Shown: positions 9,091 to 43,487, counted from the stretch's first letter. The stretch: 64,000 nucleotides of DNA from a bacterium (GCA_020057885.1 JAGVEX010000006.1:23850-87849), one strand, 5' to 3'. Notes: a model not told the origin generated them from the sequence alone. Translations and numbers: made by a program.

Positions 9091-10596
<1,506 letters not shown>

Positions 10597-10934
10597 AGGG
10601 AGTTTTCTCTAGGGTGGTTATACACTACCTTTAATTTTATTAAAGATGTCGTATGATCACTATAGGTCGTTTTATTCCATTTTTTGGGATAACTCCGGAA
10701 TTGACACCTCATTACCCGTAAGGGTTTATGTAGGTAGTATGAATTTCTTCCTCTCACTTATTAGAGAACAAAATAAAATCCAGCTTATTAAAAAGCTGGA
10801 TTTTGTATAATAGACTTGATTTACAAAATCTATTTTGCTACTATACGGGAGCGATTTTGGCTCGTATATAAATGGTAGTATTATTAAGCAGTTAGACTGC
10901 TTGCCATAAACTATTAGCCATTTGCTAAATTAGG

Positions 10935-11011
10935 GGGTGTGTAGCTCAGCTGGTTAGAGCACTTCACTGATAATGAAGAGGCCGATGGTTCGAGTCCATC
11001 CACACCCACCA
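10935..11011 (+). tRNA. tRNA-Ile (anticodon GAT) including encoded CCA
   Basis: GGGTGTGTAGCTCAGCTGGTTAGAGCACTTCACTGATAATGAAGAGGCCGATGGTTCGAGTCCATCCACACCCACCA folds as a cloverleaf; 7-bp acceptor stem GGGTGTG/CACACCC; anticodon loop CTGATAA. Confidence 0.9.
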
Positions 11012-11202
11012 GAGCTCTGCTCGCGTAATCTGCGGGAAGAGCTCTGGTTTTGTTTAGGGGACGAGAAGGGCGCGAGAGAAAGCGAGCGAGCATAGCTTTC
11101 GGTGCGCAGCGCCCAGGTGCCCGAGTCGGAGCGAGGGAGAGTCCCTGCCTACCGGATTTCGGCGAGCTCAATCGAGTCGCAGGCAGGCATCCACACCCAC
11201 CA
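11012..11202. repeat. GC-rich 176-nt insert followed by a 15-nt perfect direct repeat (CATCCACACCCACCA) of the tRNA-Ile 3' end
   Basis: The 15-mer occurs at 10997-11011 and again at 11188-11202; the insert holds the palindrome CCTGCCT..AGGCAGG and a 50-nt core shared with 43326-43384. Confidence 0.55.
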
Positions 11203-28568: not shown

Positions 28569-28726
28569 TGATTAATATAACCCCGCGGCCGTGGGGTGGC
28601 TGGAATCGGGAAGGTAAACACAGAACACAAACTGGGCAAGAGCCCAGTTTGTGTTATTTGCCCTGAGGGCTATTTTTTGGTAGAGTATTGTTTGCTATAA
28701 TCTACTATAATAAATATAAGTGGCCT

Positions 28727-28823
28727 GGTAGCTCATCACTCCGCGAGACCTAGCGTAGCTACGGCAAGCAGTAAGGCAGAGGTCTGTCCCGCTACGCGGG
28801 ATCTGGCGTAGCCATGACAAAAC
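28727..28823. repeat. Two tandem units (type A then type B) of a roughly 45-nt two-hairpin repeat, upstream of the GIY-YIG ORF
   Basis: U1 tcactccgcgagacc-TAGCgtaGCTA-cggcaa; U2 ggtctgtcccgctacgcgggatc-TGGCgtaGCCA-tgacaaaac; related units occur at 29166-29265. Confidence 0.6.
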
Positions 28824-28831
28824 TATTGTTT

Positions 28832-29086
28832 ATGAAGTATTACGTCTACATTTTAGTTAGTCTGGCAAATGATGATATTTATGTAGGTAGTACAGCCGAT
28901 GTTCAAGTTCGCCTTCACTTACATAATCAAGGTAAGGTAAAATCTACTAAAGGATATCGCCCTTGGCGTTTATTGGAGTATTATGAGTATATAACACGTG
29001 CTGAAGCAGTTAAAGCTGAACGGTTTTATAAATCTCATCACCAAAAAGAAATATTAAAAAATAAATATGGCCATGTGGTGAAGTAG
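28832..29086 (+). CDS. GIY-YIG nuclease family protein (small standalone, UPF0213/YhbQ-like)
   Basis: MKYYVYILVSLANDDIYVGSTADVQVRLHLHNQGK...RPW.L: GIY-YIG motifs; the ORF 3' end (last 18 nt including the stop) overlaps the 5' end of tRNA-Cys; the ORF track starts at 28814. Confidence 0.7.
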   Translation: MKYYVYILVSLANDDIYVGSTADVQVRLHLHNQGKVKSTKGYRPWRLLEYYEYITRAEAVKAERFYKSHHQKEILKNKYGHVVK

Positions 29087-29145
29087 TCTAACACGGCGGT
29101 CTGCAAAACCGCTATTCGCGGGTGCGAATCCCGCCATGGCCTCCA
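29069..29145 (+). tRNA. tRNA-Cys (anticodon GCA) with encoded CCA
   Basis: GGCCATGTGGTGAAGTAGTCTAACACGGCGGTCTGCAAAACCGCTATTCGCGGGTGCGAATCCCGCCATGGCCTCCA; acceptor GGCCATG/CATGGCC; anticodon stem GCGGT/ACCGC with loop CTGCAAA; T-arm GCGGG/CCCGC. Confidence 0.85.
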
Positions 29146-29165
29146 AGTAGTTAAAAATAATAGAT

Positions 29166-29265
29166 GGTCTGTCCCGCTACGTGGGATCTCCCGTAGGGAC
29201 GACAAAACCTCTATACATGGGTGTCTCACTCCGCGAGATCTGGCGTAGCCACGACAATTTTCTTG
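29166..29265. repeat. Two further units (type B then type A) of the two-hairpin repeat, downstream of tRNA-Cys
   Basis: U3 ggtctgtcccgctacgtgggatc-TCCCgtaGGGA-cgacaaaacc; U4 tctcactccgcgagatc-TGGCgtaGCCA-cgacaatttt; the 4-bp stem of the GTA-loop hairpin varies with compensatory changes. Confidence 0.6.
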
Positions 29266-29349
29266 TCTGACGAGGCCAGATGCCCAGGCCTCCATTACGT
29301 TACAATTGCCATCCGCCACTGGTGGGTGGTTTTATGATAAACTAATATT

Positions 29350-39391: not shown

Positions 39392-40327
39392 ATGTCACCT
39401 TTAGAGCGGGCTATTTTAAGAACATTAACTTGGTTTGATATTTCTAGTTATCCATTAACTGCTTTTGAGTGTTGGCAGTATCTCTATACAGAAAGTGAAA
39501 AAATTGATAATTATAGTATTAGTCAGGTAATAAATACTCTAGAGAAATTAACAAAGGAGGGGATGATAAAAAATGAAAATGGTTTTTGGCAATTAGCTAG
39601 TTCGCCCTCGCATTTTTTTAACCGCCAACAACAAGCTCGTTGGGCGTTACCAAAAAGGAAGCGTGCCCAAAAGGGCGCCAGACTTCTTTCTTATTTACCT
39701 TTTGTACGTTTTGTTGGCTTAGCCAACACCATGGCTTTTGACGCGCCGCGGCAAGCAAATAGTGATATTGATTTTTTTATAGTTTTAGGTAGTAACAGGC
39801 TTTTTATTGGCCGTTTGTTTGTGACTTTAATAGTACACTTATTTGGCTGGCGTCGTTATGGAGAACGAGTGCACAATCGTTTATGTTTAAGCTTTTACAT
39901 TACAGAAAATAATTTAAACTTAGAACAATTTTCTAAAAAAGATGATCCATATTTGCGCTTTTGGGTAGCCAGTCTAGTGCCTTTATTTGATAGAGGCATT
40001 TATGATCGCTTGATAAAAGCAAATGCTTGGGTGACAAAGGATTTACCCAATTGGCAAAAAATTTATTCAAGTTATATAAACAAAAATAAAAAAAGTTTAC
40101 CAAGTATTATACAGCGTATTTTAGAACTATTGTTTGGCGGAGCTTGGGGAAATTGGTGTGAAAAAGTTTTTTATAAATTTCAAATGAAACATATTTTACC
40201 CTATGTGGCTGATCATTTAAATAATGGAACAACTGACGTGGTTATTTCGGAAAAAGTTGTTAAAATGCATACTAATGATCGCCGCGTAGAATTGGCAGCC
40301 GCTTTTCGCAAACGTTTGCTTGGTTAG
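39392..40327 (+). CDS. Hypothetical protein
   Basis: ORF with native composition; possible nucleotidyltransferase-like core (DIDFFIVLG), weak. Confidence 0.4.
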   Translation: MSPLERAILRTLTWFDISSYPLTAFECWQYLYTESEKIDNYSISQVINTLEKLTKEGMIKNENGFWQLASSPSHFFNRQQQARWALPKRKRAQKGARLLSYLPFVRFVGLANTMAFDAPRQANSDIDFFIVLGSNRLFIGRLFVTLIVHLFGWRRYGERVHNRLCLSFYITENNLNLEQFSKKDDPYLRFWVASLVPLFDRGIYDRLIKANAWVTKDLPNWQKIYSSYINKNKKSLPSIIQRILELLFGGAWGNWCEKVFYKFQMKHILPYVADHLNNGTTDVVISEKVVKMHTNDRRVELAAAFRKRLLG

Positions 40328-40461
40328 TAGATAAATAAAGTAGTTTGGCCCCTGTAGTTTCCTCCTACGCTCTCGTTGCACTTGAGCTCCGGCGGACAAG
40401 TAATACTAAACAAAGTATTACTCGCTCATCGAAGCTCTGGTGCTAGCCAGAGCATGGTTTG

Positions 40462-40536
40462 GCCCCCGTCGTTTAATGGATAGGACACGAGATTCCGGAT
40501 CTCGTAATAGAGGTTCGATTCCTCTCGGGGGCACCA
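40462..40536 (+). tRNA. tRNA-Arg (anticodon CCG) with encoded CCA
   Basis: GCCCCCGTCGTTTAATGGATAGGACACGAGATTCCGGATCTCGTAATAGAGGTTCGATTCCTCTCGGGGGCACCA; acceptor GCCCCCG/CGGGGGC; anticodon loop TTCCGGA. Confidence 0.85.
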
Positions 40537-40620
40537 CGTAAAACTCATTTCATTCGCCACGTGGTAAAAAGATTGGACACTCGCGTCTCGTCCCGTGACG
40601 AGTATCAGCGAGTTATACGA

Positions 40621-40642
40621 GATTCGATTCCTCTCGGGGGCA
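40621..40642 (+). repeat. 22-nt direct repeat of the tRNA-Arg T-arm/3' acceptor end, 85 nt downstream of the tRNA
   Basis: GATTCGATTCCTCTCGGGGGCA versus tRNA GGTTCGATTCCTCTCGGGGGCA; an additional 18-nt copy of the tRNA 5' end plus upstream flank sits at 40344-40360. Confidence 0.55.
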
Positions 40643-40801
40643 TAGATGATGGTAGACGGGTGAAGTAGCTTATAAAAGGTTGTAATAAAGTTGTAATATT
40701 GAAGGCTTGTTTGCTGGTTATGGTAAATTATACTATAATAAACAATATCTTATCACTTTCCCTCGAATTTTCGAGGTTAATAATTAACCCATATAATATT
40801 T

Positions 40802-43204: not shown

Positions 43205-43282
43205 CGCGGGTAACGGTTAAGAAATTTAAAAGTACCCCCAAAGCGGGGGTACTTTTGATTTAATGAAGCTCGCATGGGTTTA

Positions 43283-43454
43283 CTTGCCTGCCGATAGGGC
43301 AGGCGTTTAGTTATTTTTTTGCGGAATCCCTGCCTTGCCGGATTTCGGCGAGCCCAATCGAGTCGCAGGCAGGCACCGAAGCAATCATTTCAACTGCGAG
43401 GGCTGAACATTTATAACTTAACGGCCAAGGCTTTCCCTGCCTGCGGTAGGCAGG
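43283..43454. repeat. Three GC-rich palindromic repeat copies in one 280-nt intergenic region
   Basis: TTGCCTGCC-gatag-GGCAGGCG; CCCTGCCTTGCCGGATTTCGGCGAGCCCAATCGAGTCGCAGGCAGG (50-nt core shared with 11143-11187); CCCTGCCTGCGGTAGGCAGG. Confidence 0.55.
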
Positions 43455-43487
43455 TGCAAAGGTGGATAAACTTGCTATACTAGCTTT

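Follow-up and report, generated by a model that had tools for sequence, protein, structure and literature searches.

tRNA genes are classical landing sites of mobile DNA. The tRNA gene fragments left behind by the integration of mobile elements (attL/attR repeats) have been reviewed (PMC9897764), and a tRNA gene disruption model has been put forward for Caldiarchaeum subterraneum (Sugahara et al. 2012, PMC3293823). SegB, a free-standing GIY-YIG homing endonuclease, belongs to the tRNA gene cluster of phage T4 (PMC2330249). The general class of tRNA gene fragments from mobile DNA, together with the archaeal model for 5' fragments, is thus known. Our literature search found neither a variant in which the inserts are tiny and enzyme-less, relics flank the gene at either end, the spacer is conserved and relatives show nesting, nor a nuclease-linked nested tRNA-Cys module with double-hairpin units. 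Here, both are described from a stretch of 64,000 nt (referred to as the window, ~40% G+C), whose source, judged by its relatives, is a Patescibacteria (CPR) bacterium with a very small genome.

The flagged stretch of the window contains exactly one tRNA gene, tRNA-Arg(CCG), on the plus strand at 40462-40536 with an encoded CCA (40534-40536). Its cloverleaf is accepted by ARAGORN and by the Rfam tRNA model (60.5 bits), and there is no second tRNA gene, in agreement with the initial annotation, which had taken the locus for a single intact tRNA. A repeat search found that 18 nt at 40343-40360 (GTTTGGCCCCTGTAGTTT) recur at 40457-40474 (GTTTGGCCCCCGTCGTTT) with 16/18 identity, the starts being 114 nt apart. 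The upstream copy, hereafter the outer 5' relic (plus strand), consists of five nucleotides of flank, GTTTG, which are repeated directly 5' of the gene at 40457-40461 on the same strand, and of tRNA positions 1-13 (GCCCCTGTAGTTT). Its end, at position 13/14, falls within the D-loop, and it begins 20 nt past the stop codon of the upstream gene. On the other side, the outer 3' relic (40619-40642, plus strand, GAGATTCGATTCCTCTCGGGGGCA) repeats 40510-40533 with 23/24 identity, from the T-arm through the acceptor 3' strand to the discriminator base, and its onset lies 85 nt beyond the discriminator base of the gene. It lacks CCA, carries a G53 to A change that breaks the T-stem and is followed by TAGATGA. 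The initial annotation had likewise given 18 nt for the upstream copy and 85 nt for the distance of the downstream one, but had put the upstream spacing at about 118 nt and the downstream copy at 22 nt instead of 24. Each repeat pattern occurs only twice in the 64 kb, and with shuffle expectations of 0.00 for the 3' copy pattern and 0.07 for the 5' copy pattern chance does not account for either. The sequence of the locus is identical in an independent Logan assembly (L001), which makes an assembly artefact unlikely.

Between the gene and the outer 3' relic lie the CCA and 82 further nucleotides (85 nt, 40534-40618, plus strand), which have no counterpart at the orthologous site of the relatives L077 and L159. 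On folding, the CCA is tied up in a hairpin, CCACGT...ACGTGG, at 40534-40564. CCA is encoded in each of the four tRNA genes of the window, but in none of the orthologous tRNA-Arg genes of L077, L159, L002, L003, L079 and L172. No residual tRNA similarity was detected in the 82 nt or in most of the 96 nt that separate the 5' relic from the gene. The initial annotation had proposed a search for similar inserts elsewhere; neither insert has a further copy in the window or in the subset of relatives' loci compared, and viral contigs scanned three times for the inserts or their junctions gave no match, so that there is no sign of mobility of the inserts.

The outer 3' relic extends further into the tRNA than the direct repeat itself. 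At 40571-40580 (plus strand), a D-arm-like GATTGGACAC matches the D-loop/D-stem of the gene (GATAGGACAC) at 9 of 10 positions, a match equalled in 46 of 20,000 shuffles of the spacer (P ~0.002), which suggests an onset of the relic at about tRNA position 18. Where its 17-nt anticodon arm belongs stands a 33-nt hairpin, CTCGC...GCGAG (40580-40612, plus strand), followed by TTATA (TAATA in the gene) and then by the T-arm with G53A. The outer 3' piece therefore looks, from these matches, like approximately positions 18-73 of a tRNA-Arg and the outer 5' piece like positions 1-13, and since the former reaches the D-arm it complements the latter. The resulting split, 13 | ~18, would match that of a nested tRNA found at this locus in two relatives, L081 and L161. 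When the outer pieces were joined in silico, none of 10 alternative joins gave a tRNA (ARAGORN, introns allowed), and Rfam at E<=10 reported no second tRNA at the locus. The rejection of the joined pieces as a tRNA is the reason for regarding the outer copy as dead; its decay comprises G53A, an expanded anticodon arm, the missing CCA and rejection by both ARAGORN and Rfam. We infer that the outer relics have no tRNA function.

Both outer copies are nonetheless paired in the minimum free energy (MFE) fold of 40340-40650, which is more stable than shuffled sequences (z = -3.8). The outer acceptor pairing comprises 7 bp, one of them G-U, in a helix GCCCCUG/CGGGGGC with C3-G70 and no CCA. It is this pairing that makes a tmRNA-like idea suggest itself. 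Of the marks of a nested tRNA, the break at 13 and the acceptor pairing are thus present in the window, the D-arm onset is a 9/10 match, and L077 has no 3' piece. A one- or two-piece tmRNA was rejected, as it had been in the initial annotation: neither ARAGORN nor Rfam at E<=10 reports one. Nor does a tmRNA-like superstructure fit, with no G3:U70, no tag reading frame, a broken outer T-stem and, in L077, no outer 3' piece. A group I intron was also rejected, since no model matches at E<=10 at the arginine locus and an uninterrupted gene exists there; at the Cys and L087 loci, taken up below, there is likewise no match.

The order of genes around the locus, UvrB (on the minus strand), RuvA, FemAB, a 311-aa protein, tRNA-Arg, a Wzy_C/TPR protein and a Mur ligase, is kept in relatives, so that the same site can be compared. 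L077/L078, at 77% identity in the neighbouring protein, share the 5' relic (GCCCTCATAGTTT) and have a spacer homologous to that of the window; their tRNA, without CCA, is followed directly by TAGACAA, with no 3' copy. In the alignment with L077, positions 40534-40642 of the window form a clean 109-nt insertion right after the discriminator base. L159 (neighbouring protein 48% identical) has a plain tRNA 21 nt past the stop codon, again without CCA and followed by TAGGTGA, and plain tRNAs with neither relic are found in L002, L079 and L172. The comparison of orthologous loci recommended earlier thus finds the sites of L077 and L159 without the 3' copy: in the window, a direct repeat of the tRNA end brackets DNA that is missing at the relatives' site. 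Because the distance from relic to stop codon and the TAGA flank are as in the relatives, the ancestral junctions are found, on either side, with the outer pieces; judged by sequence comparison, it is the material between them that is derived. Furthermore, 13 of the 72 tRNA positions differ between genomes that are ~80% identical in DNA over the neighbouring genes. Metagenome and genome scans with the neighbouring protein gave, besides P0002 at 79%, no relative closer than 53%. On the JGI contig that encodes P0002 (sample 3300075153), the intergenic region measures only 259 nt. In L171, whose TPR protein is 67% identical, the tRNA neighbourhood is lost, and we observed in its place ~700 nt without a called gene (L171 878-1573).

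Two hairpins (40399-40422 and 40434-40453) and a conserved block, TCTCGTTGCACTYGAGCTCC, lie in the 96-nt spacer upstream of the gene (40361-40456, plus strand). Both hairpins named in the initial annotation appear in the MFE fold, whereas its description of the spacer as GC-rich holds only moderately (51% G+C against 40% in the window). The 3' hairpin, GCTCTGG/CCAGAGC, is kept in L077 and is the only one retained by the consensus fold of the window and L077, which is built on two sequences. Identity to L077 amounts to 73/96 (76%) over the spacer, against 58% at four-fold degenerate sites (P = 1.4e-4); for these sites, identity is 0.58 with n=740 and ranges from 0.51 to 0.59 across three adjacent genes. 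The corresponding values are 59/72 (82%) for the tRNA, 17/35 for the stretch just 3' of the outer relic and 84/92 for the promoter region of the next gene. On this measure, the spacer would be either under selection or else younger than the split between the lineages of the window and L077, and because it is conserved above the neutral rate, the locus is not all passive scar. It may now be the promoter or leader of the tRNA, which is the simplest guess because the insertion has come between the gene and the reading frame 5' of it. Neither a consensus promoter nor a terminator was called in the spacer, and it has no Rfam match. The possibility that it is a degenerate copy of the double-hairpin unit described below was tried and dropped, as R1, a covariance model made here from those units, has no match in 40300-40700 at E<=1.

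Among relatives, the locus proves hypervariable. L081 and L161, which are Kerfeldbacteria-like, have an unambiguous tRNA-in-tRNA: the outer tRNA-Arg(CCG) is interrupted behind position 13 and continues from G18, and the insert consists of a double-hairpin unit and a 10-bp stem bracketing a complete, different tRNA-Arg(CCG). Removing the insert in silico leaves a valid outer tRNA-Arg(CCG) in both, and even by itself the outer 3' part reaches a tRNA score of 29.9 bits. The acceptor stems, GCCCTCA and GCGCCCA/GCGTCCA, identify the inner and outer tRNAs as different alleles. Between L081 and L161 the neighbouring protein is 58% identical and the nested unit ~95% identical, with unalignable flanks and one compensatory change in the outer anticodon stem. 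We found no publication on this tRNA-in-tRNA arrangement. From the likeness between the inner tRNA of L081 and that of the window we had considered the latter a foreign 'cassette-type' allele, an idea that was dropped because the same type is a plain resident in L159 and the 'outer' type a plain resident in L172.

In L003 and L081, the neighbouring proteins are 99% identical and the tRNA-Arg loci unrelated (L081 1100-1470, L003 2960-3500), with only GAACAGTGACGGGGTGGA after the tRNA in common. The one tRNA-Arg of L003 is of a different allele, and after it comes an island with an XRE-like gene and a fused restriction-modification methylase of 973 aa. In L160 (4680-4900), tRNA-Arg is followed by two 3' fragments, each interrupted by a small hairpin in the T-loop after GTTCGA; the last one ends in CCA, and the gene itself has none. 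In L087 (5960-6630), two 5' fragments, broken at 13/14 and 35/36, lie upstream of a tRNA-Arg(TCT), with up to 11 nt of upstream flank duplicated along. A truncated-looking tRNA-His adjoining a complete tRNA-His was also observed in the L087 region. Taken together, these loci bear the signature of a hot spot at which tRNA ends are repeatedly displaced and regenerated. The sharing of the spacer and 5' copy with a relative, the reach of the 3' relic to the D-arm and the tRNA-in-tRNA at the same locus are all features that go beyond the initial annotation.

That annotation had also noted a second tRNA with a duplicated 3' end and remarked that the pattern recurs, which is an understatement, since partial copies accompany every one of the four tRNAs in the window. 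For tRNA-Ile (region 10935-11202), the last 15 nt, CCA included, are repeated exactly 191 nt downstream at 11188-11202, and the 176 nt between the two are 62% G+C. At the minus-strand tRNA-Glu, a degenerate copy of positions 1-35 lies just upstream (21976 to 21874) and holds two insertions of 31 and 34 nt. As further observations, the 176-nt stretch at tRNA-Ile opens with a terminator-like hairpin, GAGCTCT/AGAGCTC, and then a T-rich run, TGGTTTTGTTT, and the tRNA-Glu copy is followed by ...CCGGCCCACCA, which resembles the 3' end of some other tRNA. The tRNA-Ile itself follows a 16S rRNA gene (9092-11011); no 23S gene lies within the window, and the rRNA genes appear unlinked. The window also has, at 43265-43467, an unrelated 203-nt insertion relative to L077, between the terminator of the TPR gene and the Mur ligase gene, with no long target duplication and with three CCTGCC...GGCAGG hairpins. 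A 52-nt block of it is 92% identical to the stretch just 5' of the tRNA-Ile 3' copy (11139-11189). Small G+C-rich insertions of a second family are thereby indicated.

The fourth tRNA locus is the most elaborate of the window. An outer tRNA-Cys at 28722-29294, with its 5' end (GGCCTGGTAGCTCA) at 28722-28735 and its 3' end (GCCCAGGCCTCCA) at 29282-29294, is interrupted by double-hairpin units of ~33 nt in three loops, the D-loop, the anticodon loop (exactly at G34|C35) and the T-loop. Inside it lie a GIY-YIG gene of 84 aa (28832-29086, Pfam E = 3.5e-15) and, after this, a complete tRNA-Cys (29069-29145), flanked by a 43-nt direct repeat. The GIY-YIG gene and tRNA-Cys are paired in all five lineages inspected (the window, L162, L163, L164 and L166), upstream of polA in four of them, the fifth (L164) not being seen as far as polA. 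A recent arrival of the GIY-YIG gene was considered and rejected, as it lies immediately upstream of tRNA-Cys in 5/5 lineages. An outer tRNA-Cys broken up by units was read in the window, L162, L163 and L166, and in L164 there are matches to model R1 only; in L166, the outer tRNA-Cys is valid once the inserts are removed in silico.

The double-hairpin unit consists of a first stem with a triloop, AUY, a second stem with a G[UG]A triloop and NGACAA. In the window, units lie at 28735-28767, 28787-28820, 29172-29205 and 29224-29257, and in relatives at L161 3455-3487, L081 1183-1248, L014 7506-7538 and L076 3948-3981. Covariation is clear: in six of its nine pairs both partners vary, and pairing holds in 90% of cells, compared with 31-47% once the partners are shifted against each other. 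Model R1 gives strong matches at the Cys locus of the window, in L161 and in L081, and no Rfam family matches the unit. The copies read with their flanks, new ones found by R1 among them, are inside tRNA loops, 5' of CAA; near the L014 unit ARAGORN finds no tRNA. The GIY-YIG and tRNA-Cys module, nested in a broken tRNA-Cys and accompanied by double-hairpin units, looks undescribed.

Taking the arginine locus and its relatives together, we think it probable that the relics are dead gene ends that arose from short insertions at or into tRNA-Arg(CCG), which would be a hot spot of insertion and replacement in this clade of Patescibacteria. Short segments would enter or adjoin the gene, and each time an intact gene would be retained while the displaced original end moves outward. 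Two histories, each of two events, could produce the present arrangement. In the first, one cassette with a complete tRNA-Arg would have split the resident gene in the D-loop (13 | ~18) in a common ancestor, and in L077 the right half would later have been removed when the duplicated 3' parts recombined. In the second, an older 5' event common to L077 would have been followed by a younger 3' event in the lineage of the window, each event regenerating a gene end in the manner of attachment-site duplication. A single old nesting would need gene conversion, because the 3' ends are 23/24 identical but the anticodon-arm regions are unrelated. It is insertion, as the mechanism behind either history, that we infer. 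Against the insertion reading we count that no integrase, transposase or nuclease gene is found in or beside the inserts, and the duplicated upstream flank (5 nt here, 11 nt in L087) is more readily explained by local duplication than by a cassette from outside. The earlier suggestion of insertion scars at tRNA genes is thus supported, by a 3' copy, CCA and 82 nt that are missing in L077 and L159 and by a locus that differs between strains with a 99% identical neighbouring protein. Its attribution to integrase-type integration and excision is not, given that no integrase or remnant occurs in or next to inserts of only 82-96 nt.

A more specific form of these events is conceivable and is offered tentatively: an undescribed selfish element of Patescibacteria might invade tRNA loops and bring its own replacement tRNA. 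Such an element would travel with the ~33-nt units, which insert 5' of CAA in D-, anticodon and T-loops; the GIY-YIG and tRNA-Cys module would be its nuclease-bearing form, kept across lineages, and the tRNA-Arg locus of the window a decayed form without the nuclease gene. In a bolder variant, the outer tRNAs that are still intact though interrupted (L161, L166) would be repaired at the RNA level by a bacterial route as yet unknown.

Among the alternatives to short insertions, classical integrase attachment sites come closest, although we regard them as rather unlikely. Elements would have integrated at both the 3' and the 5' end of the tRNA and later been deleted almost wholly, leaving attL/attR-like repeats with 82-96 nt between them. 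A 24-nt identity block from T-arm to discriminator base is a typical integrase attachment site in size and place. The site without the 3' part in relatives suits this explanation, as do the imperfect distal copy and the new CCA, which would be expected of a tRNA end borne by an element, the island that adjoins the same tRNA in L003 and the archaeal precedent in which an insert with a recombinase is preceded by a 5' fragment (PMC3293823). However, the bracketed 82-96 nt hold no integrase or remnant of one, and the deletions would have had to spare nothing except the junctions, and to do so at either end and at several tRNAs. The outer 3' similarity, moreover, runs back to the D-arm, unusually far for an attachment site, and the 5' spacer is under constraint.

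A purely local origin, in which slippage or unequal crossing-over makes tandem tRNA copies that then decay without any mobile DNA, appears improbable to us. It would account for the upstream flank copied along with the 5' end, here as in L087, and for the serial tandem partial copies of L160 and L087, and in the spacer GAGCTCCGG recalls, as a weak observation, the anticodon arm of tRNA-Arg(CCG). Decay, however, would not preferentially spare just both ends with ancestral outer junctions, nor erase all similarity to the tRNA from the 82 nt and from most of the 96 nt, and it is the proximal copy that gained a CCA although the ancestral gene had none. In L081/L161 the inner and outer tRNAs clearly differ as alleles, and the nesting there is therefore not the product of local duplication.

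Very doubtful, finally, is a functional nested RNA, a transcript of ~295 nt whose outer copies pair as an acceptor-like helix round the tRNA and which might serve as a scaffold for processing, as a tRNA in two pieces or with an intron, or as a regulatory RNA resembling a tRNA: for all that the MFE fold pairs the outer copies, the spacer exceeds neutral conservation (76% against 58%) and the outer tRNA of L161/L081 is intact minus its insert, with a compensatory anticodon-stem change where the neighbouring protein is only 58% identical, L077 has the 5' copy without any outer 3' copy, so that the outer helix is not conserved, the T-stem is broken, the anticodon arm replaced and CCA missing, ARAGORN rejects every composite, no Rfam family matches at E<=10, the long hairpin is lost in the consensus fold of the window and L077, and a stable fold is expected anyway of a sequence that contains a tRNA plus copies of tRNA ends.

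In this lineage of very small genomes, the footprints are unusual, consisting as they do of relics on two sides and of inserts shorter than 100 nt that encode no enzyme, and, in relatives, of complete tRNA genes nested in the D-loop or anticodon loop of another copy. If general, such events would explain large tRNA allele differences at one locus between close relatives and would call for caution from annotators over fragmentary or nested tRNA calls in Patescibacteria. They would also hint at a possible new class of tRNA-targeting elements linked to a small, widespread GIY-YIG protein.

Paquin, Laforest and Lang reportedly described double-hairpin elements in Allomyces mitochondrial DNA in 2000 (cited in PMC7218506). 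Like the units of the Cys locus, these are short, G+C-rich, two-hairpin sequences scattered in an A+T-rich genome and optional between relatives. They belong, however, to fungal mitochondria and are unrelated, whereas the units here are found in tRNA loops 5' of CAA, with none detected at the arginine locus. SegB resembles the tRNA-Cys locus of the window in that a small GIY-YIG gene lies among or beside tRNA genes and, by analogy, could drive replacement of a tRNA region. It leaves no nested tRNA fragments, though; the arginine locus has no nuclease gene, and the protein in Patescibacteria is a putative nuclease. Self-splicing tRNA introns, known from the same phylum, likewise interrupt tRNA genes with extra sequence, and annotation tools can therefore be misled in both cases. 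These introns sit in the anticodon loop of otherwise single genes, while the window shows no group I match, a complete gene alongside and a break in the D-loop.

The C. subterraneum case shares with the window a 5' tRNA fragment upstream of a complete gene with inserted DNA between them, and its locus is heterogeneous within the population, which we count as a likeness. It is archaeal, has a 1.8-kb insert with a recombinase and is tied to the gain of spliceable introns; the window is bacterial, with tiny inserts and no evident recombinase or splicing system. Nearer at hand, the nesting in L081/L161 shows the same gene neighbourhood, a break after 13, an outer 3' part from ~G18 and a complete tRNA-Arg(CCG) inside. 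There, the outer tRNA is intact minus the insert, with a double-hairpin unit and a 10-bp bracketing stem, and in the window the outer copy is decayed, with no unit detected and no bracketing stem seen. From integration-derived tRNA fragments, the window differs in inserts of only 82-96 nt without an integrase and in having relics on both sides, a 3' relic that reaches the D-arm and a conserved 5' spacer. What it has in common with them is that direct repeats of a tRNA end bracket inserted DNA while the gene stays intact, that the displaced end keeps its old flank, that relatives retain an insert-free site and that the locus is a hot spot.
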